26,939 bases of DNA. Origin: an uncultured Ruminococcus sp. Its GTDB lineage: Bacteria > Bacillota > Clostridia > Oscillospirales > CAG-272. The stretch lies in the NCBI GenBank assembly GCA_964431775.1, contig CAYSKU010000003.1:1-26939 (forward strand), read 5' to 3'. The translations under genes were made by a program, and so were the position numbers. The notes beneath the pieces are model-generated. The model saw nothing but the letters and a program-made list of their open reading frames with translations, had not been told where the DNA came from and made no database searches. Shown piece by piece: positions 1,200 to 21,877 of the stretch. Numbering within the stretch: the first letter of the stretch is position 1; the number at the start of each line of letters is the position of its first letter.

Positions 1200-3227
1200 A
1201 TGCTGAAATTCACGGAAATGCGCTTGCCGGCGGCTGACCTCGGTACACCGAACGTCCTCCCCGACGTTCGCGCAGGCTATCCCTCGGGCGATACGCCAAA
1301 CGCCCTCCCCGACACGCGCTCCGACCTCCGTCCCGACGAGACCGCATGGGTGCATAAGGGAAGGATACACTGTATGCTTCCGTATACCATGCAGGACGGC
1401 TATAACAGAGTGCTTACGGAAAAGCCGCTCAAGACCGCCGTACTCGAGAACGAGTTCCTTCGTGCGGAGTTCGCGACAGGTCTCGGCGGACGACTTTGGT
1501 CGCTCTACTCGAAGACGGAGGAGCGTGAGCTTCTTTTCAGAAACAACGTCTTCCAGCCGGCTAACCTCGCACTTCGTAACGCATGGTTCTCCGGCGGTAT
1601 CGAGTGGAACATCGGTATCATAGGTCACCATCCGTTCACCTGCTCACCGCTGTTCACCGCACGGTACAAGAACGCCGCCGGAGGCGAAACGTTGAAGATG
1701 TACGAGTACGAGCGAAAGCGCGGTATAGTGTATATCGTCCGCGCAACGCTTGCACGCGATAACCTCCTCGTCCGCGTTACTATAGAGAACCTCTCGGCTG
1801 AGGATACCTACGTCTACTGGTGGTCGAACGGCGCGTACCTCGAAACGCCCGACAGCCGTGTCATCGTTCCGGCAAAGACCTACTACAGCTACCCCTGGCG
1901 TGACGGCGTGCCGATGGTCGAGACCCCCGACGTTCCGGAGGGCGCGTATTATCCTGCCGCACACGACCACGCATACGACTACTTCTACCGTATGGAGGAG
2001 GGTCGTCACCGCTTCATGTCGTACTACAACGGAGAGGGAAAGGGCTTCGTGCAGTTCTCGACCGCAAACGAGCTCGGACGTAAGCTGTTCGTCTGGGGTA
2101 CGGAAAAGGCAGGAGGACGGAACTGGAACCGTTGGCTCTCGCATGACGACCGCTGCTACGCGGAGCTTCAAGCAGGTCTTCTGCATTCGCAGTCGGAGCA
2201 GAGACCGATGAAGGCAGGGGAGGTCATCGAGTGGACGGAGGGCTACGCCGCCTCGTCCGGCGACCCTGCTATCCTGCACGGTGCGGACTACGATGCCGCC
2301 GGACGCTACGTTGAGTCGCGCATAGTGGAGGACGGACGTATAGAGCTGGTCTGCACGGCTGATGCGTACTTCACTCCGGTCGAGGCGGAGGAGCTCGTCA
2401 GCTACGGCTCGGGCTGGGGCGCACTCGAGGAGCTTGCGCGCAGGAAGGCAGGAAGGAGCGACTGGCGACTGAGTACGAGTGCCGTCTTCCCGATAGAATC
2501 GGTCTACGGCAAGGCGGAGGAGGACTTCCTCAGGCTTCTCGAGGAGGGTCATCTGCCGTCACGTCCCGCGACGATCTCGGAGGGAGACGTTATCGAGTAC
2601 GGAGCAGGAGGGCGCATCATACACGCGCTCGAGCTGACGGAGGGCAAGGACTGGTACACTTGGCTACAGCTCGGCTGTGCGTACTACGAGGCGCGGTCGT
2701 TCGACGCGGCGCGGATGGCGTTCGAGAAGTCGATACGTGAGACGGAAAACCCGATCGCGCTACGCACGCTTGCGTGGATATACGCCGCCGATGCGGAACG
2801 CTACGGTGACGGACGTATCAGGGAGGGCGTAGGCTTGATGAAGAGGGCGGTCGAATTAGGCGGCACGGGCTACGTGCGTCTGATCATTGATGCGATACGC
2901 TATATGCAATCGTTCGGTACGGATGAGGACATAGCTGCGATGATCGAGGGGTGCGGTGCTGTGGTACGGCAAAACGGACGTATCGCGCTGTTCTACGCAC
3001 AAAGTCTCGGCAAGCTCGACAGGCTTGACGAAGCGGTATCGATCATGCGTTCCGCGCCGGAGGTATCGGACATTCGAGAGGGCGAGGTCTCGACCTCGGC
3101 GATCTGGCTCGAGCTATATCGAAAGGTGATCGCACGTGACGAGCAGCGTTCGGCAGAGTGCATCACCGACGACGAGATATTCGAGAAATACCCCATCCCC
3201 CACACCATCGACTTCCGCATGAGCTAA
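1200..3227 (+). CDS. DUF5107-domain protein with C-terminal TPR-like helical repeats
   Basis: N-terminal LENEFLRAEF..LGGRLWSL..ELLFRNNVFQPANLALRNAWFSGGIEWN is characteristic of DUF5107 as recalled; C-terminus has a TPR-like pattern (W.QLG.AYY.A..F.AA..AFEKSI); strong RBS. Confidence 0.7.
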   Translation: MLKFTEMRLPAADLGTPNVLPDVRAGYPSGDTPNALPDTRSDLRPDETAWVHKGRIHCMLPYTMQDGYNRVLTEKPLKTAVLENEFLRAEFATGLGGRLWSLYSKTEERELLFRNNVFQPANLALRNAWFSGGIEWNIGIIGHHPFTCSPLFTARYKNAAGGETLKMYEYERKRGIVYIVRATLARDNLLVRVTIENLSAEDTYVYWWSNGAYLETPDSRVIVPAKTYYSYPWRDGVPMVETPDVPEGAYYPAAHDHAYDYFYRMEEGRHRFMSYYNGEGKGFVQFSTANELGRKLFVWGTEKAGGRNWNRWLSHDDRCYAELQAGLLHSQSEQRPMKAGEVIEWTEGYAASSGDPAILHGADYDAAGRYVESRIVEDGRIELVCTADAYFTPVEAEELVSYGSGWGALEELARRKAGRSDWRLSTSAVFPIESVYGKAEEDFLRLLEEGHLPSRPATISEGDVIEYGAGGRIIHALELTEGKDWYTWLQLGCAYYEARSFDAARMAFEKSIRETENPIALRTLAWIYAADAERYGDGRIREGVGLMKRAVELGGTGYVRLIIDAIRYMQSFGTDEDIAAMIEGCGAVVRQNGRIALFYAQSLGKLDRLDEAVSIMRSAPEVSDIREGEVSTSAIWLELYRKVIARDEQRSAECITDDEIFEKYPIPHTIDFRMS

Positions 3228-3228
3228 G

Positions 3229-3438
3229 GTCGCCTGAGGCGACAGGCAGGCATCGGCGGTCGTGCAGTTGAGATCGCAAGATATCCCACGACAATATTAT
3301 TTGTGCAGGGTCATCGGCGGCAGCCTGAGGCTGCACACGGTCATCGGCGTTATTTCGGTCGAAATTGAAAGATGACCCACGACAATATTATTTGGTGCAG
3401 ATCTGTTGCTGACGTTTTGTCCTGTGCAGACCGCACGT
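3229..3438 (+). repeat. Two tandem H+C units (cores 3252-3307 and 3343-3399) plus shared tail TGCAGACCGCACGT (3425-3438)
   Basis: Hairpins GTCGCC-TGA-GGCGAC (3229-3243) and GCAGCC-TGA-GGCTGC (3320-3334); cores align to consensus. Confidence 0.9.
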
Positions 3439-3478
3439 AATAAATATGTTAGAAACGCAAGCGTTTCCTTCAATTGAT

Positions 3479-3560
3479 GCCCCTGCGCGGGGCGGCGCAC
3501 AAGGGGACTTAGTCGAAGCCCCCTTGTGAATCTCCCCGACCAGAGGCGTTCCCCCTCTGG
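3479..3560. other. Cluster of three GC-rich hairpins (REP-like), unrelated to the H/C family
   Basis: GCCCC/GGGGC (3479-3493), CACAAGGGG/CCCCTTGTG (3498-3528), CCAGAGG/CCTCTGG (3540-3560). Confidence 0.5.
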
Positions 3561-3585
3561 ACACTCCCTTTCGTGCAGTTAAGTA

Positions 3586-3733
3586 GGGGAGAATACCGAC
3601 TATCGTTTCAGTCAGTTCGTATATACCTACGAGTTGGGGTGACGTCAGCTTTCACAAAGTGAGCCGCATACGTTTTAGCGAACGGACGGAGAGGATACCA
3701 ATGGTGACGGATACGTAGTGAGGTATTCTCCCC
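3586..3733. ncRNA. Candidate structured ncRNA or MITE: 148 bp closed by a perfect 12-bp inverted repeat
   Basis: GGGGAGAATACC (3586-3597) / GGTATTCTCCCC (3722-3733), with further imperfect internal pairing. Family not identified. Confidence 0.3.
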
Positions 3734-3789
3734 GTCTATACGTAAAGCTTAGACTTATATACCGTCTGTAGACCAACGTTTATCTTAAA

Positions 3790-5799
3790 ATGAAAAACAT
3801 ACCTTTCAAGCTCACCGCCCCGTATTCCCCGACAGGGGATCAGCCGGAGGCGATAGAAAAGCTCACCGCAGGAATAGAGGCAGGTATGCGCTACCAGACC
3901 CTCCTCGGTGTCACAGGCTCGGGCAAGACCTTCACTATGGCAAACGTCATTGCTCGTCTGAACCGCCCGACCATAATCCTTTCACATAACAAGACCCTCG
4001 CGGCGCAGCTCTGCTGTGAGTTCCGCGAATTCTTTCCCGAAAACGCAGTCGAATATTTCGTCTCGTACTACGATTACTACCAGCCCGAGGCATACGTCCC
4101 CGGTAAGGATATGTATATCGAAAAGGACTCCTCCGTGAACGACGAGATCGATAAGCTGCGCCACAGCGCGACCTCCGCTCTCTTCGAAAGACGTGACGTC
4201 ATAATCGTGTCGAGCGTGTCGTGCATATACAGCCTTGGCCCTCCGGAGGAGTACGCCGGACAGGTCATCGGACTTCGACCCGGTCTCGAGCTGTCGATGC
4301 GTGAGCTAATGGCTCGTCTCGTCTCGATAAGCTACGAGCGAAACGACGTGCAGTTCGTCAGAGACAAGTTCCGTGTCCGCGGTGACGTTATCGAGATATT
4401 TCCGGCAGACTATTCCGAACGAGCGATACGTGTCGAGTTCTTCGGCGACGAGATCGACCGTCTGTCCGAGTTCGATCCGCTGACGGGACAGGTACGCGAA
4501 TACCTGACCTACGCGCCGATATATCCGGCGACCCACTACGTCGTCGATCCGACGATGCGCGAACGTGCGTTCGAGGAGATCGAGAATGAGCTTGAGGAGA
4601 GGGTGGAATGGTTTCGTTCGCAAGGGAAGCTCCTCGAGGCACAGCGCATAGAGGAGCGCACACGCTACGACCTCGAGATGCTTCGTGAGGTCGGCTTCTG
4701 CTCCGGTGTCGAGAACTATTCCCGAGTTTTTGCAGGACGTGCGCCGGGTTCGACGCCGTACACGCTCCTCGACTATTTCCCCGACGACTACATCATGTTC
4801 ATAGACGAGAGCCACGTTACGATACCGCAGGTCGGCGGCATGAGCGGCGGCGACCGTGCGCGAAAGAAGAATCTTGTAGATCACGGCTTCCGTTTGCCGT
4901 CAGCCTACGACAACCGACCGCTGACGTTCCCCGAATTCGAAGGGAAGCTGAATCAGGTCATCATGGTCTCCGCGACCCCTGCCGAATACGAAGCGGAGCA
5001 TACCGAGCAGGTCGTTGAGCAGATCATCCGTCCGACCGGACTTGTAGATCCTGAGGTAGAGGTACGTCCGGTCGAGACGCAGATAGACGATCTGCTGATC
5101 GAGATACGGGAGCGAGTGAAGCGCGAGGAGAGAGTTCTTGTCGCGACACTGACCAAAAAGATGGCGGAGGACTTGACGGAATACCTTGACGACAACGGTA
5201 TCCGTGTGAAGTACATCCACCACAACGTTGACACGATGGAGCGGACGGAGCTGTTGCGCGATCTGCGAATGGGGCTGTTTGACGTGCTTGTGGGAATAAA
5301 TCTTCTCAGGGAGGGAATAGACCTGCCGGAGGTGACACTTGTAGCTATACTTGATGCGGACAAGGAGGGACTTTTCCGAAGCACACGTTCGCTGATACAG
5401 ATGATCGGACGAGCGGCGCGGAACGCGAACGGGCGAGTGATACTGTACGCGGACAAGATAACGACCTCGATGCGCGAGGCGATAGAGGAGACGGAGCGAC
5501 GTCGCACCATACAGCAGGCGTACAACGCGGCGAACGGCATCACGCCGAGGACGATCGAGAAGAAGATCGGAGGACTGATCAAGATCGCGGCAACGGACGA
5601 GGGAGAGGCGGTCGCGCCGAAGAAGCGTGGACGTCGCAAGGCGGAGCCGGCGGTCGTTGAGAATGCGGTGACGGGCGAGACGCTCGAATCACAGCTCGAG
5701 CGACTGCAAGCCGAGATGCTACAGGCGGCGAAGGAGCTTCGCTTCGAAGAAGCGGCGTTCCTTCGCGACAAGATAAGTCGGCTGAGGTCGGCGGTCTGA
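3790..5799 (+). CDS. uvrB: Excinuclease ABC subunit B
   Basis: PTGDQPEAI, Walker [25 protein letters not shown] beta-hairpin, IDESH, C-terminal UVR coiled coil ([13 protein letters not shown]). Confidence 0.98.
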
Positions 5800-6087
5800 G
5801 ACCGCAGGCATGAATCGGTGTTCGTGAAGTTGAAAGTGGGAGATATCACACGAGGGTGGAGTTGGTGCAGGTCTGGTCTGCTGACGAGACGATATGGTCA
5901 CACGTGTATGAGCCTCCCTTCGGGAGGGAAGGAGAGCGCGTTACAATAGACTTGCACAAATAAAATTGTCGTGGGATATCTTTCAACATAAACTGAAAGT
6001 GCGCCGATGACTGCCTGTCGCCTCAGGCGACCCGATGACTGCCTGTCGCCTCAGGCGACCCGATGATTGCCTGTCGCCTCAGGCGAC
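5791..6087. repeat. Composite repeat: H (loop is the uvrB stop) + core(+, 5814-5869) + shortened module B (5909-5950) + core(-, 5953-6008) + three 28-bp H units (6004-6087)
   Basis: Direct alignment; unit CCGATGACTGCCTGTCGCCTCAGGCGAC x3, with one mismatch in the third. Confidence 0.9.
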
Positions 6088-6150
6088 TCTGCACAGCACT
6101 GAATTTCAGCGGTCATTGTTGACCGCAATTATTTTTTTACATTATAAGCC

Positions 6151-6369: not shown

Positions 6370-7668
6370 ATGACGATCTCCGAACTCAAAAAGAAGATAC
6401 TCGACGGCGGTATCGACGAGACCCTCGTAAACGGTCTGTCCGTGCCTGCCGATAAGATACCCACACAGCGCGAACGCTACGCCAAGGCGACCGACGAATT
6501 CGTCGCCCTCTACGGTGACGGTGATGTCTCCCTCTACTCCGTTGGCGGCAGAAGCGAGATATCCGGTAACCATACCGACCACAACTTCGGTCGTGTAATT
6601 GCCGCAAGTGTCAACCTTGACGTGCTTGCTGTCGTTAAGAAGACCGAGGACGGCGTTATCCGCATAAAGAGCGAGGGCTTCCCCGAGGATATCGTTTCCC
6701 CCGAGGCTGCCGAAGCTCCCGACGAGGCTAAGTTCTTCACCTCGGCGGCGATCATCGCCGGTATGGAGCGTGCGTTCCTTGACGCCGGCTACGCGGTCGG
6801 CGGCTTCGATGCGTACACTACGTCAAACGTCCTCAAGGGCTCGGGCATAAGCTCCTCTGCGGCATTCGAGGTAATGGTCGGCAATATCCTGAACTACCTC
6901 TACAACGACGGACGTGTCTCGAACGTTGAGATCGCGAAGATGGCGCAGTTTGCCGAGAACAAGTTCTTCGGCAAGCCGTGCGGACTTATGGATCAGACCG
7001 CCTGTGCGGTCGGCGGCTTCATCACCATCGACTTCGAGGATCCCACCGAGCCTGTTATCGAAAAGCTCGACTTCGACCTCACTGCCGCGGGCTACAGCCT
7101 CTGTATCGTAAATACCGGCGGCAACCACGCAGACCTCAACGATGATTACGCCTCCGTTCCCACCGAGATGAAGGCTGTTGCCGCAAAGCTCGGCGTTCCC
7201 GTGCTTCGCAAGACCGACCGTGAGGCTCTCGACAAGGCTCTTGCCGAGGACGGCGCGTCACTTCGCGAGGATCCGGGCGACCGCGCTATCATGAGAGCGT
7301 ACCACTTCTTCGCGGAGAACGAGCGTGTAGCCGCTCAGGTCGAGGCGTTGAAGAAGGGTGACGTTTGCGGCTTCCTGTCCGGCGTTACCGCCTCCGGAAA
7401 CAGCAGCTTCAAGTTCCTCCAGAACGTTTACACGACAAAGAACGTTGGTGAACAGGGACTTTCCCTTGCACTTTGCCTTGCGGAGCGCATGACGGGTGAG
7501 TTCGGCGGTGCTTGCCGCGTTCACGGCGGCGGCTTTGCCGGAACTATACAGGCGTTCATCCCGACCGACAGGACAGCGGAGTTCGCCGCAAGGATGGACA
7601 GCATATTCGGCGCAGGCGCAACTCACATCCTCAGCGTTCGCAAGAACGGTGCCTGCAAGATCTGCTAA
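6370..7668 (+). CDS. galK: Galactokinase (GHMP kinase family); start revised from 6229 to ATG 6370
   Basis: GRSEISGNHTDH, GSGISSSAAFE, GKPCGLMDQ and RVHGGGFAGT motifs; RBS GAAAGGA just upstream of 6370. Confidence 0.88.
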   Translation: MTISELKKKILDGGIDETLVNGLSVPADKIPTQRERYAKATDEFVALYGDGDVSLYSVGGRSEISGNHTDHNFGRVIAASVNLDVLAVVKKTEDGVIRIKSEGFPEDIVSPEAAEAPDEAKFFTSAAIIAGMERAFLDAGYAVGGFDAYTTSNVLKGSGISSSAAFEVMVGNILNYLYNDGRVSNVEIAKMAQFAENKFFGKPCGLMDQTACAVGGFITIDFEDPTEPVIEKLDFDLTAAGYSLCIVNTGGNHADLNDDYASVPTEMKAVAAKLGVPVLRKTDREALDKALAEDGASLREDPGDRAIMRAYHFFAENERVAAQVEALKKGDVCGFLSGVTASGNSSFKFLQNVYTTKNVGEQGLSLALCLAERMTGEFGGACRVHGGGFAGTIQAFIPTDRTAEFAARMDSIFGAGATHILSVRKNGACKIC

Positions 7669-7672
7669 TTCT

Positions 7673-7890
7673 GTCGCCTGAGGCGACAGGCAGGTATCGG
7701 CGTACTTTCAGCTTAGATCGAACGAGCTCCCACGATGGGATGGTTTGTGCAGACTTGGTCTATAGACTGTATGCTTTTTGCAGACCGCACGTTATTTTAT
7801 TATGCTTGCGGTGACACGTTATCATCGTGGGATCGCTCTACTGTATGGCTGAACGTAAGCCGATCCATGTCCGCGGTGACACGCCGCCGC
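7673..7890. repeat. H + core(+, 7696-7751) + tail + degenerate core(-, 7809-7864) + decayed hairpin
   Basis: GTCGCC-TGA-GGCGAC 4 nt after the galK stop. The reverse copy keeps ATCGG and CCCACGA with the same spacing as intact cores but has lost TGCA. Confidence 0.8.
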
Positions 7891-8300: not shown

Positions 8301-8783
8301 ATGCTCAAATTGACGATAATCGCCATGGGACGACTGACTGTCGGGTATTTTCGCGAGGCTTGCGAGGACTATCTTCGCAGGATGTCGCGGACGTACAGCG
8401 TGACTGTCGTAGAGCCGAAGCCGGAGCCTCTTCCGAAGGAGCCGACGGAGGGGGACATAGCCCGTGCGCTCGAGCGTGAGGCTGTTCGCATACGAGAGGC
8501 GATACCTCCGCGAGCGGTGGTGATCGCGATGTGTGTAGAGGGGCGTGAGCTGTCCTCGGAGGAGCTTGCGGCACGTCTTGACGGCTACGCATCGTCCGGC
8601 GTATCGGAGGTATGCTTCATCATAGGCTCGTCGCACGGCTTGGATGCCGCGCTCAAGACCTCCGCCGCGCTTCGCCTGTCGGTCTCACGCATGACCTTTC
8701 CGCACGAGCTGTTCCGCGTTATGCTGTTCGAGCAGCTCTACCGCGCCTCCGAAATAAACTCCGGCACTCGCTACCACAAATAG
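8301..8783 (+). CDS. rlmH: 23S rRNA (pseudouridine-1915-N3)-methyltransferase
   Basis: SPOUT signature: FIIGSSHGL, LSVSRMTFPHELFRVMLFEQLYRA, terminal RYHK; 160 aa. Confidence 0.95.
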   Translation: MLKLTIIAMGRLTVGYFREACEDYLRRMSRTYSVTVVEPKPEPLPKEPTEGDIARALEREAVRIREAIPPRAVVIAMCVEGRELSSEELAARLDGYASSGVSEVCFIIGSSHGLDAALKTSAALRLSVSRMTFPHELFRVMLFEQLYRASEINSGTRYHK

Positions 8784-8787
8784 GCGG

Positions 8788-9010
8788 GTCGGCTGAGCCG
8801 ACAGGCGGTCATCGGCGTTCGTGAAGTCGAGACTTTAAGACATCCCACGACAATATTATTGGTGCGGATTTGGTCTGCTGAGTCGGCTGAGTCGCCTGAG
8901 CCGACAGGCGGTCATCGGGTCGGCTGAGCCGACAAACGGTCATCGGCGTTCGTGAAGTCGAGACTTTAAGACATCCCACGACAATATTATTGGTGCGGAT
9001 TTGGTCTGCA
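8788..9010 (+). repeat. Two identical cores (8811-8866, 8942-8997; 131-bp spacing) with interspersed H units
   Basis: Direct comparison; the first hairpin starts 4 nt after the rlmH stop. Confidence 0.92.
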
Positions 9011-9025
9011 TAAGGTAACATCATC

Positions 9026-9865
9026 ATGGAACAATTATTGAGAACAAGATCGCATATCGGAGCAACAGAGCCGTTTAAGCTCCTGCATATCTCCGATACT
9101 CACCTCTGTCTCGCGGACGACCGCGATGACAAACGCAAAAACGACCTTGCCGTGAGCCGTTCGAGGGTGTTCGGTGACGGCATGGATGCACTGCGCTGGA
9201 GTGCGGACGTTGCACGTGAGAACGGTGCGCTGCTCGTCCACACCGGCGACCTCATCGACTTCGTTTCCTACGCGAATCTCGATGCGGCAAAGCGGTTCAC
9301 CGATGAGAACGACTGCTTCTTCGCGGCAGGAAACCACGAATTCAGTCTGTATGTCGGTGAAGCGTGGGAGGACGAGGCGTACCGTGAACAGAGCCTTGCA
9401 CGTGTACAGGCGGCATTCAAGAACGATATCCGCTTCTCCTCACGTGTCGTTTGCGGCGTGAACCTTGTCGGTATAGATAACTCCTACTACCGCTTCGACA
9501 GGCTCCAGCTCGACCTATTGAAGCGTGAGGTCGAGCGCGGTCTCCCGATACTGCTGTTCATGCACGACCCGATGCACACGGACGAGCTCTTCCGCTACAT
9601 CCGTGAGGAGCGCGGCGACCGTATCGCGTATCTTGCCGCGACTCCACGTGAGCTTTTGTCGGATTACGATGACTACCGCTTCCGTCAGCAGTGTCCGGAC
9701 GATATAACGGTCGAGGCGGCAGAATATATCGCAGGAGAACGCTCGATCCGCGCTCTGTTTACGGGACATCTCCATTTCAGCTACGAGGTGTCGTACTACG
9801 GCAGAACGCAGTACGTGACAGGCGGCACGGGACACCGTATCGCCCGACTGATCGAGATAGATTAG
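9026..9865 (+). CDS. Calcineurin-like metallophosphoesterase
   Basis: Metal-binding motifs in order: HISDTH, TGDLID, GNHE, FMHDP, GHLH. Confidence 0.88.
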   Translation: MEQLLRTRSHIGATEPFKLLHISDTHLCLADDRDDKRKNDLAVSRSRVFGDGMDALRWSADVARENGALLVHTGDLIDFVSYANLDAAKRFTDENDCFFAAGNHEFSLYVGEAWEDEAYREQSLARVQAAFKNDIRFSSRVVCGVNLVGIDNSYYRFDRLQLDLLKREVERGLPILLFMHDPMHTDELFRYIREERGDRIAYLAATPRELLSDYDDYRFRQQCPDDITVEAAEYIAGERSIRALFTGHLHFSYEVSYYGRTQYVTGGTGHRIARLIEID

Positions 9866-9918
9866 TACCACAGCAATACCTTAGTACCACAGCAATACCT
9901 TAGTATCACAGCAATACC
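9862..9918 (+). repeat. 19-bp tandem repeat x3 (TTAGTAYCACAGCAATACC)
   Basis: Units at 9862, 9881 and 9900; one substitution in the third. Confidence 0.95.
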
Positions 9919-9928
9919 AAACTACACA

Positions 9929-12355: not shown

Positions 12356-12359
12356 GTCG

Positions 12360-12609: not shown

Positions 12610-12655
12610 CGCATTTCCTATCTATTATACCACTATATTATAGAAAAGTAACCTA

Positions 12656-14713
12656 ATGAAAAAAAAAGATCAATATAATAACCAATCGATAACATCGTTA
12701 AAGGGACCTGACCGTGTGCGAAAAAGACCTGCGGTCATTTTCGGCTCGGACGGTCTTGAAGGCTGTGAGCATTCCGTTTTCGAGATCCTCTCAAACTCTG
12801 TCGATGAGGCTAAGGAGGGCTTCGGAAACGTTATAAATATTACCGCGTACCGTGACAAGTCCATCGAGGTCGAGGACTTCGGGCGCGGTCTTCCCGTCGG
12901 CTGGAACGAAGCCGAGAACCGCTGGAACTGGGAGCTCGTCTACTGTGAGCTTTACGCCGGCGGCAAATACGACAACAACTCCGACGGCTCGGCTTACGAG
13001 TATTCGCTCGGTCTGAACGGTCTCGGTGCTTGCGCGACACAGTATTCGAGTGAGTATTTCGAGGTACGCTCCTATGACGGAACGAACGTTTCGGAGATAC
13101 ATTTCGAAAAGGGCGAGCCTGTCACGGAGCTGACGGTCAGACCCCTTGAAAAGCGCGAGAAGCGCACCGGCACTGTTCAGCACTGGAGACCAGACCTTGA
13201 CGTCTTCACCGACATCGACATTCCGCGTGAATACTTCACCGATATGCTGAAGCGTCAGGCAGTCGCGAACCCCGGGATACATTTCGTCTTCCGTTGGGAG
13301 GTCGAGACTCCGCCGGAGGGGAGCGAGGATAGTGCGAAAAGGTCAAAAAAGAGCGCGAACGTTCCCGAAAGGTATTTCGAGACCGAGGAATTCTACTACG
13401 AGAACGGTATCGAGGACTACGTAGCGGAGGTTGCGGGTGACACTGCCGAAACGAAGGTCGCACACTTCCACCTTGAGACGAAGGGTCGTGACCGTGCGGA
13501 CATGAAGGACTACAAGCTCCTTGTTGACGTTGCGTTCACGGTATCGAAGACCGTCCATATGCTCGAATACTACCACAACTCGAGCTTTCTCGAGCATGGC
13601 GGCTCACCCGAACGTGCGGTAAAGACGGCGTTCGTATACGCGATAGACAAGAGGCTCAAGGCGACCGGAAAGTACAACAAGAACGAAGCGAAGATAACGT
13701 TCCAGGATATCGAGGACTGTCTGATACTCGTGACGAACGGCTTTTCGACACAGGCCTCCTACGCGAACCAGACCAAAAAGGCGATCACGAACTCGTTCAT
13801 CGCGGAGGCGATGACGGACTTTTTGAAGGAGCAGCTCGAGTATTTCTTCGCGGAGAATCCGCTCGATGCGGACAAGCTGACCGCGCAGGTACTCGTGAAC
13901 AAGCGTTCGCGTGAGCAAGCGGAATCAACGAGGCTCAATCTAAAGAAGAAGCTGACGTCATCGACAGACGTAGCAAGCAGAGTTGAGAAATTTGTAGCGT
14001 GTCGATCGAAGGATGCGGCGGTACGTGAGCTGTATATAGTTGAGGGAGACTCGGCTATGACGTCCTGCAAGCTGGCGCGCAACGCGGAGTTTCAGGCGAT
14101 AATTCCGGTACGCGGAAAGACGCTTAACTGCATGAAGGCGACCTACGACCGCATATTCAAGAGTGACATAATAGTCGATCTGCTCCGAGTTATCGGGTGT
14201 GGTGTCGAGATACAGACGAAGAACAAGTCTGACATGGTGCCGTTCGACATGGCGAATCTGCGGTGGTCGAAGATAATCATATGCACCGATGCGGACGAGG
14301 ACGGCTTCCAGATACGGACGCTGCTGTTGACGTTATTCTACCGACTTCTGCCGACCCTGTTAAAGGAGGGGCGCATATACATTGCGGAGTCGCCGCTCTA
14401 CGAGATCACTCCGGCGAAGGGCGAGTCGCTGTTTGCGTACAACGAACCCGAAAAAGCGGAGATCATAAAGAAGCTCGAAGGGTCGAAGACGAAGTACACC
14501 CTGCAACGTTCGAAGGGGCTTGGTGAGAACGAGGCGCAGATGATGTCGAAGACGACGATGGATCCGGCATCGCGCCGACTGATCCGAGTCACGCCGTCCG
14601 ATGCGGCTGAGACCGCACGTATGTTCGAGCTCATGCTCGGCGACGATCTTGCCGGACGTAAGCGGTACATTGCCGAGCACGGTGCCGAATACCTCTCCGT
14701 CGCCGACATATAG
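12656..14713 (+). CDS. Type IIA DNA topoisomerase subunit B (GyrB/ParE family; gyrase vs topo IV not resolved)
   Basis: GHKL ATPase motifs (EILSNSVDE, DFGRGLP, LYAGGKY, GLNGLGA), TOPRIM ELYIVEGDSA, PVRGK, ICTDADEDG, QRSKGLGE. Confidence 0.92.
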   Translation: MKKKDQYNNQSITSLKGPDRVRKRPAVIFGSDGLEGCEHSVFEILSNSVDEAKEGFGNVINITAYRDKSIEVEDFGRGLPVGWNEAENRWNWELVYCELYAGGKYDNNSDGSAYEYSLGLNGLGACATQYSSEYFEVRSYDGTNVSEIHFEKGEPVTELTVRPLEKREKRTGTVQHWRPDLDVFTDIDIPREYFTDMLKRQAVANPGIHFVFRWEVETPPEGSEDSAKRSKKSANVPERYFETEEFYYENGIEDYVAEVAGDTAETKVAHFHLETKGRDRADMKDYKLLVDVAFTVSKTVHMLEYYHNSSFLEHGGSPERAVKTAFVYAIDKRLKATGKYNKNEAKITFQDIEDCLILVTNGFSTQASYANQTKKAITNSFIAEAMTDFLKEQLEYFFAENPLDADKLTAQVLVNKRSREQAESTRLNLKKKLTSSTDVASRVEKFVACRSKDAAVRELYIVEGDSAMTSCKLARNAEFQAIIPVRGKTLNCMKATYDRIFKSDIIVDLLRVIGCGVEIQTKNKSDMVPFDMANLRWSKIIICTDADEDGFQIRTLLLTLFYRLLPTLLKEGRIYIAESPLYEITPAKGESLFAYNEPEKAEIIKKLEGSKTKYTLQRSKGLGENEAQMMSKTTMDPASRRLIRVTPSDAAETARMFELMLGDDLAGRKRYIAEHGAEYLSVADI

Positions 14714-14716
14714 TCG

Positions 14717-14852
14717 GGCGGCTGAGCCGCCAGACGGTCATCGGGGCGGCTGAGCCGCCAGACGGTCATCGGCGTTCGTGAAGTTTAGGCTGAAAGCGAT
14801 CCCACGACAATATCATTTGTGCAGGGCAGCTGAGCCGGCGGTCTCAGACCGC
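14717..14852. repeat. Two 28-bp H units + core(+, 14768-14823) + reverse H (14838-14852)
   Basis: GGCGGC-TGA-GCCGCC at 14717 and 14745, starting 3 nt after the stop codon. Confidence 0.9.
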
Positions 14853-14949: not shown

Positions 14950-16455
14950 ATGCTGAGATCAACATTGCATCTTCATCCCGCTTTTACTGTCGGAGATGTC
15001 GATCCGCGTATCTTCGGCTCGTTCATCGAGCATCTCGGTCGTGCCGTGTATCACGGTATCTACGAACCGGATCACCCGACCGCCGATGACGAGGGCTTCC
15101 GCGGCGACGTCCTCGAAATGGTCAAAAAGCTCGGTGTGCCGATCGTTCGCTACCCGGGCGGTAACTTTGTTTCCGGCTACCGTTGGGAGGACGGCACAGG
15201 CGACCGTGCAAAGCGTCCGCGCCGTCTCGAGCTTGCATGGGGCGTTACCGAAACGAACGAGGTCGGTATCGATGAATTCCAGAGCTGGTGCAAAAAGGCA
15301 GGCTCCGAAGTCATGATGGCGGTCAACCTCGGTACTCGCGGACCGGAGGAGGCTCGTCAGCTCGTTGAATACTGCAACCACCCGGGCGGAACCGAGTATT
15401 CGGATCGTCGTCGTGCAAACGGCTTCGAGGAGCCGTTCGGCATCAAGGTATGGTGTCTCGGTAACGAGATGGACGGCTCGTGGCAGATGGGTGCGAAGAC
15501 CGCGACAGAGTACGGTCGTATCGCCGCAGAGGCGGCAAAGCTCATGAAGTGGACAGACCCGTCCATTGAGCTTGTAGCCTGCGGTGCATCGGGCTACGGT
15601 ATGTGCGGTGACTGGGAAGCGGAGGTACTTCGTCACGTTTACGATCACGTTGACTACATCTCCCTTCACAGCTACTACGGCAACCCTGCGAACGACACCC
15701 CGACGTTCCTTGCCTCGAGCCTCGACATGGAGACGTTCATCCGCACGGTCTGCGGCATTGCCGACTACATCAAGAAGATCAAGCATTCGAACAAGACGAT
15801 GTATCTGTCGTTTGACGAATGGAACGTATGGTTCCACAGCCACGGCGTTCCGTTTGAGAAGTGGTCTGTCGCGCCGCCGCAGCTCGAGGACATATACACG
15901 TTCGAGGACGCGCTCGTTGTCGGCTGTCTGATGATGACTCTGCTTCGCCACTGTGACCGCGTAAAGATGGCTTGTCTTGCACAGCTGGTGAACGTCATAG
16001 CACCGATCATGACGGAGAACAGCGAAAACGGCGGACGTTGCTTTGCACAGACGATCTTTTATCCGTTCATGTATATGTCGCGCTACGCACGAGGCACAGT
16101 GCTTGACGCCAGAGTCGTCTGCGACAAGTATTCGACCGCGCACGTCAAGGATGTACCGTACATCGAGTCACTCGCGGTGCTTCACGAGGACACGTCCGAG
16201 CTTGACATATTCGCGGTGAACCGTTCGCTTGACGAGGACAGCGACTTTACCATCGATCTGTCCGCGTTCGGCAGCTCTGTCGAGGTGATCGAGCATATCA
16301 CGATGACCAACGACGATCTCAAGGCTGTGAACACTGCGGACGATCCCGAGAACGTCATACCCGAAGCGAACGGTGATGCGACCGCAAGCGGCACGACCCT
16401 CACCGCGACCCTCGGCAAGCACTCCTGGAATATGCTCCGCGTAAAGGTCGGCTGA
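14950..16455 (+). CDS. abfA: Alpha-L-arabinofuranosidase, GH51
   Basis: IFGSFIEHLGRAVYHGIY, RYPGGNFVSGYRWEDG, WCLGNEMDG (acid/base), LSFDEWNVW (nucleophile), AQLVNVIAPI; RBS GGAGG. Confidence 0.95.
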   Translation: MLRSTLHLHPAFTVGDVDPRIFGSFIEHLGRAVYHGIYEPDHPTADDEGFRGDVLEMVKKLGVPIVRYPGGNFVSGYRWEDGTGDRAKRPRRLELAWGVTETNEVGIDEFQSWCKKAGSEVMMAVNLGTRGPEEARQLVEYCNHPGGTEYSDRRRANGFEEPFGIKVWCLGNEMDGSWQMGAKTATEYGRIAAEAAKLMKWTDPSIELVACGASGYGMCGDWEAEVLRHVYDHVDYISLHSYYGNPANDTPTFLASSLDMETFIRTVCGIADYIKKIKHSNKTMYLSFDEWNVWFHSHGVPFEKWSVAPPQLEDIYTFEDALVVGCLMMTLLRHCDRVKMACLAQLVNVIAPIMTENSENGGRCFAQTIFYPFMYMSRYARGTVLDARVVCDKYSTAHVKDVPYIESLAVLHEDTSELDIFAVNRSLDEDSDFTIDLSAFGSSVEVIEHITMTNDDLKAVNTADDPENVIPEANGDATASGTTLTATLGKHSWNMLRVKVG

Positions 16456-16542
16456 GCCGACGGGCGGTCATCGGCGTTCGTGCAGTTGAAATTGGGAGAT
16501 ATCCCACGACAATTTCATCTATGCAGATCTAGGCGGTCTGCA
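16447..16542 (+). repeat. H (loop is the abfA stop) + core(+, 16470-16525) + tail
   Basis: GTCGGC-TGA-GCCGAC at 16447-16461; TGA at 16453-16455 ends the ORF. Confidence 0.92.
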
Positions 16543-16567
16543 AGAAAAGCTCCCATACGAATAATAA

Positions 16568-16613
16568 AACAGCAAGCTCCGGCAGATCGTTTGTCCTGTC
16601 GGAGCTTGCTGTT
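16568..16613. terminator. Probable bidirectional terminator between convergent abfA and ABC genes
   Basis: 18-bp stem AACAGCAAGCTCCGGCAG / CTGTCGGAGCTTGCTGTT (one G-U), A-rich on the left and T-rich on the right. Confidence 0.7.
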
Positions 16614-16658
16614 ATTTTGTCAGCTTCACGTTTAGGCTTTCTTCATGAGGTGCGGTCA

Positions 16659-16993
16659 GTCGGCGGTCGGTGAAGTCAAAATTGTATGATATCCCATGAT
16701 GGTGTAGATAATGCGTTATAATAAAGCAATTCTAAGCTTAATGTAACGCACTCTCCTTCAGTCGTCGTTGTCGCCTCAGCCGATCTTATAGACCAAGTCT
16801 GCACAAACTCCACCATCGTGGGATATCTCCCAACTTAAACTGCACGAACGCCGATTCATGCCCATCGCCTCAGGCGACCCGATGACTGCCTGTCGGCTCA
16901 GGCGACACGATTCATGCACCAATAACATTGTCGTGGGATGTCTCCCAACCTAAACTGCACGAACGCCGATTCATGCCCGTCGCCTCAGGCGAC
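16659..16993. repeat. Degenerate core(+, 16659-16715), partial module B (16742-16775), cores(-) at 16800-16855 and 16915-16970, H units to 16993
   Basis: Direct alignment; the terminal hairpin overlaps the TAG stop of the minus-strand ABC gene by one base. Confidence 0.88.
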
Positions 16994-19900
16994 TATTCGC
17001 TGCGGAGGGCTTCGACGGGGTCTTTTTTGGCGGCAAAGTTGGAGGGGATCAGTCCGGCAATGAGAGTCAGTGCCATGCTGATCAGTATCAGCGCGACCCC
17101 TCCGACGACCGGCAGACGTGCAAGGTTCGATATGTCGGTCAGATGCTTGATTATCATGTTCGCAGGTATGCAGAGGAGCAGCGTCACACCGATACCGATA
17201 ACGCCGGAGGATAGACCAACTATCAAGGTCTCCGCGTTGAATACTCTCGATATGTCACGCTTCGATGCTCCGATCGCACGAAGTATACCGATCTCCTTCG
17301 TCCGCTCGAGCACGGAGATGTACGTTATGATACCGATCATTATAGACGATACCACCAGCGAGATCGAGACGAACGCTATAAGTACGTAGGATATTACGTT
17401 GATTATCGTCGAGATGGAGGACATCATGAGTGCTACATAGTCAGTGTAGTTTATTATGTCCTCCTCACGTCCATCGTCCGAGCAGCTGCGGTTGTACTCG
17501 GCTATGATCTCCGAGATCATGTCCTTGTCCTCGAACGTCTTCGCGTAGATGTTGACCGAGGTCGGCGAGAGCTTCGTGCTGTAGCCGAGAAGGGAAAGAT
17601 TGTCCTCGTAGGTCGAGTCGGAGAACCACGCCGGCATATACTCCGCATACCCCTCCGCGACCGCTTCGTCCGACAGCTCATCGAGAAGTGCGTCAAGCTG
17701 TGCCGCAAGCTCGTCCGTGGACAGCGTGCCGAGCTGACTCTCGATCTGCTCCGCATACGCCGCCTTGACCTGCGCCGATACGATCCGGAGTGCCATTTCG
17801 GCAACGTCCTCCTCGGACATCGAGGTCATGTACGCCTCGACTGCCTGCGCCTCCATGCCGCTCTGCTCGATCATAGCCGCACGTACCAGCTCGACCGCCG
17901 CACCCTCCGGCATTGCCGCAAGCTGCTCCGTTGCCTGTGCGAGCGCGTCCTCGTCCGACATGGTCGAAGCCTTCTTCGCGTAGACAGCAGCCTTGTCGGC
18001 TACATTCATCGAGGCTATCTCCTCACGAATGTACGGCGCGGTCGCCGCTCCCTCGGGTATCTCCGTCGTGCCGTCGTCAAATCTAAGCCCCGTCAGAACG
18101 TCTGTCGCCTCGTCCGCAAGCTGCGCCTTTATAACGTCCGCCTCGGCGGTAGCTTCAAGGATGTACTCCGTCAGCGCGGATGTGTAGCCGATAGCACCGG
18201 TCAGTGATGCCGCTACCGCCTCGGGGTCGGGACGAACGATACCCGATATGCGAAGCTTCTGTGCATCCTCGATAACGACCCTCATGAACGCCTCGTTGTC
18301 GCCCATGTATTCGAACGTTCCGTCCTCCGCACGGCGATAGCAGTCGGAGGGGAGAACGAGCGCGAATTCACGCCCGAGAAGCTCGTCGAACGCCCAGCTC
18401 GTGCTCTCCGCATCGAACGTCTCTCCTGCGGCAACTGCCGACATCATATCCTTTAATTCGTCGTTGTCCTTGAGACCGAGCGCGTACAGGAATACGTCGT
18501 TGACCTCGTTGTTCTTGTCGATGACGAGAACGACCTCGTCATATGAGGAGGGCCAGTGTCCGGCAACAACGTCGTATTGCTCCGACATCAGCTCCTCGTT
18601 GTCGATCATCTCCTGCCATATGCTGAGTCCCGAGGAGGTCGAGAGAAGACTGCTCATGCCGCCGACCGCACCGGAGGCTATGCCGCCCTGTGCCGCTTCG
18701 TCAGACGAGGGCGCGGACGCTGCACCGCCGAGCATAGTTCCGGCGAACATCTCGGAGGGATTGAGCCTCGTTATGCCGTCCGAGGTGTCGGTGGAGTATA
18801 TGTGCAGGGGGACGTTGTAGCCGTACATGACGGTGGAGGCGTAGTCTGATATGCCCGACTCGTCACCCTCGAGGTACTCAATGAACGCGGAAAGGTTGTT
18901 CTCGCGAACGTCTGCGGACATCATCGTGTCCATGAGGTCGTACATCATGACGTTCGAGTAGACGTAGCCGTCCTCGTGTGACTTGAGCGAACCCTCACGC
19001 GACTCCATGAGGGAGGTCATCAGTGAGGACATATCGACAGTTGACTGCTGTATCGAAATGGGGTAGGTGGAAAGAGTATCCTCCTGCACCTTGTCTATGT
19101 AGAGGTCGATACCGTTTGAGAGGGAGAGTATCAGCGCGATACCGATAATACCGATAGAGCCGGCGAACGCGGTAAGGAACGTCCGACCCTTTTTGGTCAT
19201 AAGGTTGTTCATGGAGAGGGAGACCGCCGTTGCGAAGGACATGGAGGTCTTGCCGCTCTTTGCGTTTTTGGCTCTTGCCGAAGCTGTGTCGGCGGCAGAG
19301 CTGTCACGGAGCTCACGAGCCTCCTCCTCGGGGGAATAGGGGTCGGAGTCGGAAAGGACACGACCGTCAAGGAGACGGATTATCCTGGTGGAGTAGCGAT
19401 CCGCAAGCTCGGGGTTGTGGGTGACCATGATGATGAGCTTTTTCTTTGCGATCTCACGGAGTATCTCCATTATCTGGACACTCGTTTCGGAGTCGAGCGC
19501 GCCGGTGGGTTCGTCTGCGAGGAGGATGTCGGGGTCGTTGACGAGCGCACGTGCGATAGCGACACGCTGCATCTGACCGCCGGACATCTGGCTCGGCTTT
19601 TTCTTCAGCTGATCGCCGAGACCGACCGCCTCGAGAGCCTCTGTCGCACGCTTACGTCGTTCGGCGCGTGAAACGCCGGAGAGGGTCAGAGCCAGCTCGA
19701 CGTTCGAGAGGACGGTCTGATGGGGAATGAGGTTGTAGCTTTGGAAAACAAAGCCGATGGAGTGGTTGCGGTAGGCATCCCAGTCGCGATCGCGAAAATC
19801 GGTGGTGGGAACGCCGCGCACGGACAGCTCACCGGAGGAGTAGCGGTCGAGACCGCCGATGATGTTAAGCAGGGTAGTCTTTCCGCAGCCCGAGGGACCG

Positions 19901-20019: not shown

Positions 20020-20278
20020 GGCTGTTTCTCGGGCGACTTCAAGTATCTCTCTTCACTGTAAAAGTTATTCAAGGTCAAAAGCTACGTTTGAATCTGCTCG
20101 TTTACAGCTCAAATGTTAAAATTTCTTATCGCAATAATTATACCCACGGCATATATCGATTTCTACTCCAATTTGTAAAGAAAAGTTAAATTAGAATGAG
20201 TGGAAAGGGAAGCATAGTAGTACAAAAAGCACTGCAACGGTAGGGGAGATCGTAAAGTTTCATAATACGGTTGAGACG

Positions 20279-20609
20279 GCGGTCTGAGACCGCTCGTCGC
20301 CGTTGTCGCCACAAATGGCGACCGTGATGCCTCCCTCCGGGAGGGAGGGGGACCGCGTAAGCGGTGGAAGGAGAGCGCGTTACAATAAATTTGCACCAAT
20401 AACATTGTCGTGGGATATCTTTCGACCCAAGCTTCACGAACGCCGACTATGCCTGTCGCCTGAGCCGACCCGATTCATGCCTGTCGTCTCAGGCGACCCG
20501 ATGACTGCCTGTCGTCTCAGGCGACCCGATGACTGCCTGTCGCCTCAGGTGACCCGATGACTGCCTGTCGCCTCAGGCGACCCGATGACTGTCTGCGGTC
20601 TCAGACCGC
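20279..20609. repeat. H(+, 20279-20293) + module B variant + core(-, 20392-20447) + six ~28-bp H units (20443-20609)
   Basis: Units start at 20443, 20470, 20498, 20526, 20554 and 20582. Confidence 0.92.
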
Positions 20610-20619
20610 CGACCCGACC

Positions 20620-20648
20620 TTGCTTTTTTGGTGGCTTTGTTGTACAAT
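20620..20648 (+). promoter_or_regulatory. sigmaA-type promoter for cysteine desulfurase
   Basis: TTGCTT (20620-20625), 17 nt, TACAAT (20643-20648). Confidence 0.55.
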
Positions 20649-20725
20649 ATACCTGAAAAACGGCTCATGATGAGCCGATGCAGTCATACCGTAACACCGT
20701 AAATCCATGATCCGAGGTGATATTC

Positions 20726-21877
20726 TTGATATACGCGGACTATGCCGCAACGACTCCGGTATCAGAGCGCGTTTGCGCCGTACTCTCCAACGCTACTCGT
20801 GAGGTATTCGGTAATCCATCCTCCCTCCATTCGGTCGGACGTGCCGCCGCAAGGCTCGTCGATCGCGCTCGTGAACAGGTCGCCGCGCTCCTCGGCTGCC
20901 TGCCCGAGGAGGTCTTCTTTACCTCCGGCGGTACGGAGTCCGATAATCACGCCGTGCGACTTGCCGCAGGTCGTAACATCGTGACCTCCGAGATAGAGCA
21001 TCCTGCCGTCCTCGAAGCCGCTCGACATATGTCGGGACGGCTCGACCTGATCGATACCGAACCAAGCGGTCGCGCCTCCGTCTCCTCACTCGCTCACCTG
21101 CTCGGGGAACGTGAGGTCGCGCTCGTCTCGCTTATGTACGCAAATAACGAGACAGGTGTCGTGCAACCGGTGCGTGAGGCGGCAGCTGCCGCTCATGCGG
21201 TCGGTGCGCTGTTCCACTGTGACGCCGTGCAGGGCGTAGGTCACGTCATGCCCTCCGTCCGTGAGCTTGACTGCGATCTTATGTCCGTCTCCGGACACAA
21301 GCTCCACGCGCCCAAGGGTATCGGCGTTATATATATAAGGAAGGATATCGTCGAAAACGTTCCGGCACTGCACTACGGCGGAGGTCAGGAGCGCGGTATC
21401 AGGAGCGGAACGTTGCCCGTTCCGCTGATCGCCGCTCTCGGCGAAGCCTGTGACGAGGCACGCGAACGTATGCACGAGGACGACCGCCGTGTCACGCGAC
21501 TGCGTGACGCCATCGAGGACGAGCTTCTGACGATACGCGACAGCGTTCGTCTCGGCTCGGGCGAACGTATGCCCGGGATACTCGATATCGCGTTCTCGGG
21601 AGTGGGAGGGGAAGCACTCACGTTGCTCTGTGACCTGCGCGGAGTTGCGATCTCCGCAGGCTCGGCTTGCCATTCGGGAGATCTATCGCCCTCGAGAGTT
21701 CTATTATCGATGGACGTGCCGTCCGAGCTTGCTTTATCCGCGATACGCATCTCCATCGGACGATACACCACGTCAGAGGAAGCCGAGCGCATCGTCTCCA
21801 CCGTCCGCACCTGCCTCGCTCTCTCCCTCGGGTCTGTCGGGTCGGCTGAGCCGACAGGCATGAATCGGCGTTCGTGA
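20726..21877 (+). CDS. Cysteine desulfurase (IscS/NifS family); start more likely TTG 20726 than GTG 20717
   Basis: YADYAATTP, GNPSSLH, FTSGGTESDN, PLP lysine in SGHKLHAPKG, catalytic Cys in SAGSAC; GAGGTG RBS 6 nt before TTG. Confidence 0.92.
   Translation: MIYADYAATTPVSERVCAVLSNATREVFGNPSSLHSVGRAAARLVDRAREQVAALLGCLPEEVFFTSGGTESDNHAVRLAAGRNIVTSEIEHPAVLEAARHMSGRLDLIDTEPSGRASVSSLAHLLGEREVALVSLMYANNETGVVQPVREAAAAAHAVGALFHCDAVQGVGHVMPSVRELDCDLMSVSGHKLHAPKGIGVIYIRKDIVENVPALHYGGGQERGIRSGTLPVPLIAALGEACDEARERMHEDDRRVTRLRDAIEDELLTIRDSVRLGSGERMPGILDIAFSGVGGEALTLLCDLRGVAISAGSACHSGDLSPSRVLLSMDVPSELALSAIRISIGRYTTSEEAERIVSTVRTCLALSLGSVGSAEPTGMNRRS

Follow-up and report, generated by a model that had tools for sequence, protein, structure and literature searches.

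A hairpin-headed modular repeat lying flush with stop codons in an uncultured Ruminococcus

The stretch of DNA analysed here, hereafter the window, comprises 26,939 nucleotides and represents the entire contig C3 of a 2.41 Mb metagenome-assembled genome (MAG) of an uncultured Ruminococcus sp. (301 contigs, 80% complete, 0.9% contaminated, GC content of 53%). Its genes, among them a DUF5107 gene, uvrB, galK, rlmH, a topoisomerase gene, abfA and an ABC gene, are accompanied by copies of a short repeat headed by a small hairpin with a TGA loop, and this hairpin lies directly against, or itself forms, the stop codon of the preceding gene. The host is taken to be an uncultured spore-forming member of the gut Clostridia, since SpoIVA is encoded in the MAG and the window stretch is present in 18 metagenome runs, animal-gut or unlabelled, from five studies. 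Contigs of four runs, each from a different study, reach these hairpins at positions identical to those in the window, and the junctions described below are therefore not an assembly artefact.

Anatomy of the repeat and its junctions in the window

The repeat unit, here called an arm, is polar and consists of a hairpin head, a spacer (AGGCnnTCATCGG), a tail of ~55 nt and an end. Hairpins were defined by a GC-rich 6-bp stem, a 3-nt loop and perfect pairing; hairpin and spacer together constitute a 28-nt unit that is often repeated in tandem. The tail follows the pattern ...CCCACGACAATATT...GTGCAG, also read as CG...CCCACGACAAT...GTGCAG, and the 3' terminus is ...GGTCTGCTGA, sometimes with an additional C. 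This terminus is itself ...CTGA, and in tandem arms it continues into a right half-stem and spacer. Stops occur in all three frames of the head, at the TGA of the loop, within the spacer (CATGAATCGG or CATAGTCGG) and within the tail (TTCGTGAAG). In the window alignment, helix 1 is paired in 96.7% of cells, with both sides changed at five of its six pairs, while a second hairpin, located in the tail, holds in a subfamily only; the consensus 5' of the stem is G-G. Inspection of the window revealed no intrinsic-terminator U-tract after the hairpin, the spacer following instead, and native terminators sit away from hairpins, e.g., at ~16570-16622. No Rfam family matches the window at gathering score, and arm RNA folding is near that of shuffled controls (z-scores of -0.8 to -1.8).

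Arms stand alone, follow one another in tandem, or flank a centre module as inverted pairs. This module is ~85 nt long, has two small hairpins (GTCGCCATAAATGGCGAC and CTCCCTCCCGGAGGGAG) and is encountered in either orientation, in the window at 874-956, 12450-12520, 16739-16790 and 20296-20380. A recurrent mosaic module, GTTTTGTCCTGTGCAGACCGCACG, was also observed after arm ends (3415-3440 and 7780-7795).

At the DUF5107 junction (3225-3403, plus strand), the stop TAA (3225-3227) is separated by 1 nt from the hairpin at 3229-3243, whose arm (3228-3310) is followed by a second, tandem arm (3319-3403). The galK stop (TAA, 7666-7668; junction 7666-7755, plus strand) is followed by a 4-nt native gap, TTCT, and by a solo arm at 7673-7755 with its hairpin at 7673-7687. 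At rlmH (8781-9001, plus strand), a 4-nt gap separates TAG (8781-8783) from the hairpin at 8788-8802, and the arm (8787-8870) is succeeded by an array of left half-hairpins at 8873-8905 (GTCTGCTGA GTCGGCTGA GTCGCCTGA GCCGAC) and by a second arm (8918-9001), the next start codon lying 24 nt past its end. The gene for a 183-aa protein (TAG at 12353-12355) is followed, again after 4 nt, by a composite that extends to 12610, with its hairpin at 12360-12374, a left arm (12359-12441), a centre (~12450-12520) that is a 91% reverse complement of 838-950, and a right arm (12527-12610); no flanking duplication is present at this composite. The topoisomerase gene (junction 14711-14852, plus strand) ends with TAG at 14711-14713, 3 nt ahead of the first of two hairpins (14717-14731 and 14745-14759), its element further comprising an arm (14744-14825) and a lone TCA hairpin (14838-14852).

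At two genes the loop itself terminates translation. The uvrB junction (5774-5873, plus strand) carries a hairpin at 5791-5805, the loop TGA of which (5797-5799) is the stop codon, within an arm at 5790-5873; the last seven codons of uvrB derive from the element, i.e., from a half hairpin, GTCGGCTGAG, followed by GTCG. Its heads-out partner on the minus strand (5950-6087) consists of a right arm at 5950-6032 and three 28-nt hairpin units with TCA loops on the plus strand at 6017, 6045 and 6073. For abfA (junction 16447-16529, plus strand), the hairpin at 16447-16461 has its loop TGA, the stop codon, at 16453-16455, the arm spans 16446-16529, and the last two residues of the protein (VG) are encoded by the left stem. 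On the tail side of this arm lies a native-looking A/T-rich 3' untranslated region (UTR) with a bidirectional terminator at ~16570-16622. The minus-strand ABC gene beyond it abuts an element at 16656-16995 that comprises a decayed arm (16656-16708), a centre (~16739-16790) and right arms at 16796-16879 and 16914-16993; its TAG (16993-16995) shares G16993 with the outer hairpin (16979-16993). Finally, an open reading frame (ORF) of 386 aa runs through the hairpin at 21841-21855 and ends at an arm TGA (21875-21877), 36 nt past the hairpin start, in an element at 21840-22173 with arms at 21840-21922 and 21935-22016 and a right arm at 22078-22173.

The eight hairpin-stop junctions listed in the initial annotation proved exact, including the two at which the loop TGA terminates uvrB and abfA. 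Its statement that the TGA-loop strand is the mRNA strand in every case holds for the minus-strand ABC gene as well and, with the 386-aa ORF added to the eight junctions, for nine of nine window cases.

The remaining window elements are three tandem arms at 1-327 (plus strand, 109-nt period, the first two identical, the contig beginning within the array), a composite at 791-1127 (left arm 791-873, centre ~874-956, right arms 961-1043 and 1045-1126), and an element in a divergent gap at 20279-20609, composed of a lone hairpin (20279-20293), a centre (20296-20380), a right arm (20388-20470) and a 28-nt array to 20609. The copy number of this array varies, three of the four runs skipping 139 nt (~5 units) at 20442-20582, which represents the sole clear polymorphism.

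Placement and orientation across the genome

A hidden Markov model (HMM) of the arm, built from the window arms and run over all MAG contigs, identified 1,210 arms on 202 of the 301 contigs, with both strands equally represented. Genome-wide, 1,225 hairpins carry a TGA (634) or TCA (591) loop, the next commonest loop being found 108 times, and these two loops are each more than five-fold above any other. Eight stem versions cover 97% of hairpins, 89% of the hairpins with common stems are perfectly matched, and the stems covary around an invariant loop and closing pair (C-TGA-G).

Genes were called with a home-made caller based on codon usage, which recovers every expected window gene and returned 1,875 genes, of which 1,602 with a stop were used for the distance test. 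Repeats were masked by 13-mers, and distance was taken as the first base of the hairpin minus the last base of the stop, such that -8 denotes a loop that is the stop codon. A hairpin is present within 300 nt downstream of 400 of the 1,602 genes, in sense orientation in 332 and antisense in 68 (binomial p = 8e-43), and the genome-wide check of hairpin-to-stop distance and strand proposed in the initial annotation therefore returned both the enrichment and the sense bias. The loop TGA is the stop codon of 58 genes, while the hairpin starts at distance 0 in 17, +1 in 46 and +2 in 25 (88 at 0-2 nt) and at +3 to +12 in 102. The gaps of +3 to +12 are made of G/C-rich element pieces (TCGG, GGTCG or a half hairpin), and element sequence thus begins right after the stop in nearly all cases. 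ORFs entering the element in either of the remaining frames end at -22 (13 genes) and -36 (28 genes), and about 55 end deeper inside an arm. Among well-scored genes with a first sense hairpin at -8 to +300, the hairpin lies at +12 or nearer in 213 of 284; antisense hairpins are all but missing from the 100 nt next to stops (25) and grow frequent only past ~150 nt. About 18% of genes (~1/6) are touched by the element, which supplies ~110 stops.

The sense rule is in part a matter of geometry. The order of intergenic arms is, virtually without exception, plus followed by minus, with hairpins outward: the '-+' order occurs in none of 132 two-arm gaps, '+-' is the commonest two-arm form, and inverted pairs flank centre modules. 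Given this heads-out order, a stop-facing hairpin is sense by construction, and the TCA-loop copies sit deeper in the same gaps, e.g., at 5950-6087 and 12527-12610. Solo arms in co-directional gaps, however, face the upstream stop in 118 cases and the downstream start in 26 (4.5:1), indicating a 3'-end preference beyond geometry.

The initial annotation had also proposed, with partial support from the present data, that insertion targets gene 3' ends, possibly by means of a stop-codon-like target captured in the loop. The strong 3'-end association and the strand bias agree with the first of these suggestions, but divergent gaps are occupied by arms as often as convergent ones (35% and 38%, with 20% for co-directional gaps) and, of 419 cleanly bounded outer hairpins, 181 lie at sense stops and 238 elsewhere. 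The captured target is unsupported as a general rule, as a stop-like trinucleotide is present in the 0-5 nt 5' of 16% of these 238 non-stop heads, versus a background of 23%. The C that commonly precedes the stop was likewise considered as a target base and rejected, since the excess of C recurs at every third position over ~15 codons.

Non-stop heads tend to lie against -35 boxes or the T-runs of terminators. A promoter-like motif is located within 60 nt of 58 of the 238, compared with 3.4% expected (7-fold), with offsets that cluster at 0-17 nt, and a T-run is found within 10 nt of 28. In the window, the outer hairpin of the 791-1127 composite (1113-1127) abuts, upstream of the DUF5107 gene, a -35-like TTGCGT (1128) that is followed 17 nt on by TATAAT. 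Promoters just outside heads possess unusually G-rich spacers (TTGCG/TTGAC ... GGGGAGA ... TGGTATAAT), as seen at 1128-1160 and at similar sites on contigs C12, C13, C14, C17, C37 and C54, whereas element-free window promoters have A/T-rich spacers.

On three contigs, 38 genes could be compared by synteny with the nearest species (77-81% DNA identity). Nine of 11 flush genes stop at the orthologous position, with C-terminal residues conserved up to and including the final one. Lengths of the five loop-stop genes depart from those of their orthologues by +1, 0, 0, -1 and -4 residues, and these genes bear element-coded ends (...SAV*, ...VG*). The alignment of UvrB and AbfA C-termini suggested in the initial annotation revealed such ends in both proteins (orthologue ...RALEATK* versus ...SRLRSAV* here for UvrB, and ...LG* versus ...VG* for AbfA); the loop is indeed the stop, but not always in the native register, and the offsets reject the notion that the loop TGA always replaces the native stop in register. 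The convergent gap between abfA and the ABC gene measures 61 nt in the sister species and contains stop, terminator and stop. In the present genome, the abfA stop is separated from the retained A/T-rich 3' UTR and terminator by a solo arm, and the terminator from the ABC stop by a composite with an extra arm. These represent two separate stop-flush sense placements.

No arm was detected in 51 of 52 congeneric species (one weak match) or in 12 other families of the order. A scan of 185k species genomes with the arm motif, leaving out the genome itself, returned, among the matches listed, single chance hits in GC-rich genomes, none of which fits the arm HMM. The repeat is therefore lineage-specific, and the same sites are filled in the runs of four studies. 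A metagenome scan for UvrB retrieved relatives of at most 68% identity, which are of no use for empty-site pairs. A separate small repeat, confined to the four closest sister species (4 of 52), begins 0-4 nt past stops and opens with heptads rich in stops in three frames (CTAAGAA CTAAGAG TGAATAA CTAAGAG...). This repeat, often present as inverted pairs 66-136 nt apart and absent from the genome studied here, is seen, e.g., directly after the stops of the rlmH, DUF5107, g279 and topoisomerase orthologues (genomes G009, G041 and G034), and looks like an analogous stop-hugging family.

A G-poor coding tail ahead of the hairpin

Genes that end flush with a hairpin have an unusual 3' end. In 61% of flush genes, versus 21% elsewhere, C immediately precedes the stop, with an excess also at -4 and -7, third-position C rises overall from 37% to 60% over ~15 codons, and third positions of the last ~14 codons are C in 55-65% (baseline 37-38%) and G in 9-19% (baseline ~30%), both returning to baseline by codon 22-25. 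Shares of individual codons fall from gene body to tail, i.e., AAG from 96% to 61%, GAG from 86% to 45%, GCG from 56% to 11% and CTG from 33% to 6%, with NNC codons replacing others in four-fold families against the genes' own preference. In the window, the last 15 codons of the topoisomerase gene (14666-14710, plus strand) have C and G at 0.67 and 0.07 of third positions, compared with 0.21 and 0.54 in the gene body, and the same G-poor, C-rich tails are found at 3180-3224, 7621-7665, 8736-8780 and 12308-12352 on the plus strand and 16996-17040 on the minus strand.

The signature is anchored on the hairpin, since in ORFs that end inside an arm the third-position C plateau is shifted by ~12 codons. 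Solo arms (n=78) carry the same signature as composites (n=59), which rejects a pairing of the C-rich tail with the G-rich right flank of composites, and the G-poor flank is present only 5' of the hairpin strand, with none on the tail side. Promoter-facing heads show it also, the flank on the hairpin strand containing G at 0.13 and C at 0.24 versus 0.22 and 0.245 in a control that includes some coding DNA (p = 4e-9). A whole-gene codon-usage class was rejected, as the bodies of the genes are alike (0.385 versus 0.371). Across 11 genes, third-position C in tail and body amounts to 0.65 and 0.31 and G to 0.08 and 0.39, while in the 11 orthologues of relatives the corresponding values are 0.38 and 0.46 for C and 0.25 and 0.28 for G, i.e., the signature is absent.

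G-poor tails are present at a normal frequency among element-free genes, and tails overall exceed internal windows in this respect; a pure choice of G-poor tails as targets would therefore need a preference of more than 20-fold and is strained. The Rho RNA-binding domain (PF07497) gave no match in any of the 53 genus genomes, of which 14 reach a completeness of 90% or more, control genomes being positive. As Rho is absent from the genus, the G-poor leader is no rut site, and a Rho-dependent terminator was rejected. The literature searched yielded no precedent for a G-purged coding flank at repetitive extragenic palindromic (REP) sequences.

Origin of the arrangement and its relation to known repeats

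We tentatively favour, at a little short of an even chance, the view that the hairpin is the outward head of an abundant, lineage-specific modular mobile repeat of the REP or bacterial interspersed mosaic element (BIME) kind, distributed by nick-and-join spread together with selection. In 152 arrays, two or three left half-hairpins (stem plus TGA, sometimes with an additional G) of mixed stem types precede a full hairpin, and in 60 chimeric hairpins the exact halves come from stem types with at least two differing positions, both of which fit breakage and rejoining between the C and the TGA of the loop. The REP-associated transposase (RAYT) of E. coli cleaves single-stranded DNA between C and T at each side of a REP hairpin (PMC3479197). 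Spread and rearrangement might proceed through an HUH/RAYT-like reaction in which single-stranded DNA is nicked and joined in a strand-specific manner under the direction of the hairpin, cutting between C and T, for which the C-TGA of the loop would be one cut site. The head is joined on the sense strand at the base right after the native stop or, in about one third of cases, up to ~8 codons upstream, where the three-frame stops of the element close the protein. Purifying selection would then keep only those junctions that leave protein, promoter and terminator intact, such that heads come to lie immediately beside the final base under constraint. Both the enzyme and its reaction are inferences, as would be any function of the hairpin in mRNA. 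Templating of right stems from the last two codons was considered and rejected, given that eight fixed stems account for 97% of hairpins.

Several observations weigh against this account. No match to Y1/RAYT (PF01797), TnpB (PF07282), IS110 (PF01548) or reverse transcriptase (PF00078) was obtained in the MAG, which is 80% complete and whose contigs break at repeats, and its proteome contains no multi-copy genes. The six genes bracketed by arms tail-in on both sides, i.e., those for MatE, a sugar-phosphate isomerase-like TIM barrel, SpoIVA, GH5, GH123 and an AI-2E transporter, are ordinary. No column representing a GTAG or CGTC tag exists at the hairpin foot, either among 799 aligned arms or in the window alignment. 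C-T or CTRR sites are so abundant that they cannot account for the hits at stops; stop-flush heads and the half-arrays of the loop fit a ...C-TGA target, yet the 238 other heads show no enrichment of TRR. The element-side junction varies (hairpin foot, one base to either side, or a partial spacer TCGG or GGTCG), unlike a precise transposon end. Lastly, no joint that cleanly skips one element was encountered in the four runs, whose contigs stop at elements; only copy-number change and chimeric joints were seen. Mobility itself is thus not observed, although contigs that break at elements are no evidence for an absence of polymorphism.

With regard to the G-poor tail, it is possible, albeit on balance doubtful, that the head reshapes the host DNA over 45-60 nt on its 5' side, on the hairpin strand only, with G lost and C gained where the protein allows, and that it has done so in ~200-300 genes since the split from the sister species. 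Possible causes of such reshaping are a polar, element-anchored mutagenic or repair patch, or selection for a G-free leader required by a stop-adjacent hairpin in a lineage that lacks Rho.

An unlikely but serious alternative is that the host selects the element at 3' ends, sense stop-touching hairpins being kept for their action in mRNA. The hairpin could then block 3' exonucleases, tune termination or ribosome release, an effect reported for stop-proximal REPs of E. coli, or set 3' ends without Rho, and the G-free tail could be selected so that the hairpin folds without competition. Such selection accords with solo arms that face stops 4.5 times more often than starts, with the invariance of loop and closing pair while stems covary, with the loss of silent G against the genes' own codon preference (AAG 96% to 61%, GCG 56% to 11%) and its absence from orthologues, with a purge of ~15-20 codons, about one or two ribosome footprints, and with the absence of Rho in 53 of 53 genus genomes. 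However, the hairpin is weak at 6 bp, arms fold no better than shuffles, no U-tract follows, and promoter-facing heads, for which the strand in question is not mRNA, are also flanked by G-poor sequence, although the control in that comparison is imperfect. Moreover, 51 of 52 sister species manage without the element, and about 190 junctions exactly at +1 are left unexplained by selection alone.

Erosion on the head side, which we consider improbable, would have arms land anywhere in intergenic DNA, after which breakage and repair at the hairpin end, e.g., cleavage of the hairpin and subsequent resection, trims dispensable DNA until constrained sequence is reached, and error-prone resynthesis of the adjoining ~50 nt would leave the silent-site signature. 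That heads are flush with three constrained kinds of sequence (stop, terminator and -35 box) and never seen facing each other, that element-side junctions vary, that the loop and read-in classes resemble a loss of dispensable C-terminal codons (+1 to -4), and that the flank signature is polar and head-anchored would all follow. Yet no known repair process pushes all silent sites to C on one strand, many truncated hairpins would be expected where 89% of those with common stems are perfect, tandem '++' arrays persist though the second head faces the first tail, and the 4.5:1 excess of stop-facing solo arms needs an extra assumption. That the pattern is an artefact of gene calling, with ORFs ending at element stops, or of mis-assembly of a repeat-rich MAG is hardly credible: the read-in classes at -8, -22 and -36 are by nature ORF-end effects and the assembly is fragmented, with contigs ending in repeats, but about 190 junctions follow stops whose position matches orthologues, contigs from four independent studies reach the same junctions, and the strand bias (p = 8e-43) is extreme.

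The mobile modular repeat favoured here shares much with the REP, BIME and REPIN-RAYT systems of E. coli, Pseudomonas and Stenotrophomonas, which are likewise short GC-rich extragenic palindromes in hundreds of copies, arranged as mosaic arrays and inverted doublets, lineage-specific, vertically kept and mostly 3' of ORFs. REPs are mostly found downstream of ORFs, and GTAG-REP termini frequently supply TAG stops to flanking ORFs (PMC3733652). The present element differs in its lack of a GTAG or CGTC tag, in its 15-nt hairpin with a conserved non-palindromic tail of ~70 nt, in the absence of a RAYT from the 80%-complete MAG, in its Firmicute host, and in a far stricter placement (~18% of genes touched, ~110 stops supplied). 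To our knowledge, a G-purged coding flank such as that found here has not been described for REPs. In E. coli, REPs within 15 nt of a stop reportedly lower translation through ribosome stalling, and they resemble the present arrangement in that a sense hairpin right 3' of the stop has to be melted by the terminating ribosome; there, however, this is a minority position and a regulatory side effect, whereas in the present family this position predominates.

Miniature inverted-repeat transposable elements (MITEs) with long terminal inverted repeats, such as Correia, ERIC and RUP, are comparable in their composites of ~250 nt with inverted arms of ~85 nt, their intergenic location, their co-transcription and the orientation-dependent effects reported for them. 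Here, in contrast, arms also occur solo or in tandem, no parent insertion sequence (IS) was found, inspection of 791/1127, 5790/6087 and 12359/12610 revealed no target-site duplication, and arms paired in a composite resemble each other no more than they resemble arms from other loci. Of the attributes of DDE-type MITEs, inverted arms are thus present, while duplication and a related IS are not. The palindrome-associated transposable elements (PATEs) of the IS200/IS605 family are similar in having hairpin ends, no duplication, strand-specific insertion 3' of a short target and an own end like the target (...CTGA), but the non-stop heads of the present element lack a consistent target and no TnpA or TnpB was found in the MAG. 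The MIRUs of Mycobacterium tuberculosis, said to be tandem minisatellites inside operons with small ORFs, are also intergenic, oriented with the flanking genes and overlapping with the stop or start codons of neighbours; the present element is, in contrast, dispersed, hairpin-headed and without an ORF.

Additional repeats and frames were noted in the window. An inverted repeat at 3586-3776 upstream of uvrB, an earlier candidate non-coding RNA, contains 13-mers that occur at least six times genome-wide at 3610-3676 and 3739-3776, and summed contig depth is raised in the 3000-3663 bin, which also holds the arms at 3227-3403; this rod-like structure is another dispersed repeat and no unique locus. 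Three tandem 19-nt units (ATACCTTAGTACCACAGCA) at 9857-9925, between the stop of a 279-aa gene and the next start, are unrelated to the hairpin family. A 1,260-codon frame at 23110-26892 (minus strand) is antisense to a 1,060-aa gene at 22843-26025 (plus strand); codon scoring favours the plus-strand gene, and its antisense counterpart probably arises as a side effect of codon bias.

Descriptions of REP-like repeats are usually limited to a loose '3'-proximal', whereas the element of this genome touches ~18% of stops at single-base precision, supplies the stop of ~110 proteins and alters a few C-terminal residues. As a practical consequence, gene callers and MAG assemblers will mishandle such a genome, in which contigs break at every element and C-termini are element-coded. 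Whether placement results from mobility or from retention for function becomes directly testable in this species, and the G-purge represents a quantitative footprint of a repeat on host coding sequence. If mutational, this footprint would point to a polar process tied to single-stranded DNA hairpins and thus to a new kind of repeat-driven local mutation bias; if selected, it would reveal a new sequence requirement around stops, i.e., a new cis-signal at the ends of translation or of transcripts.

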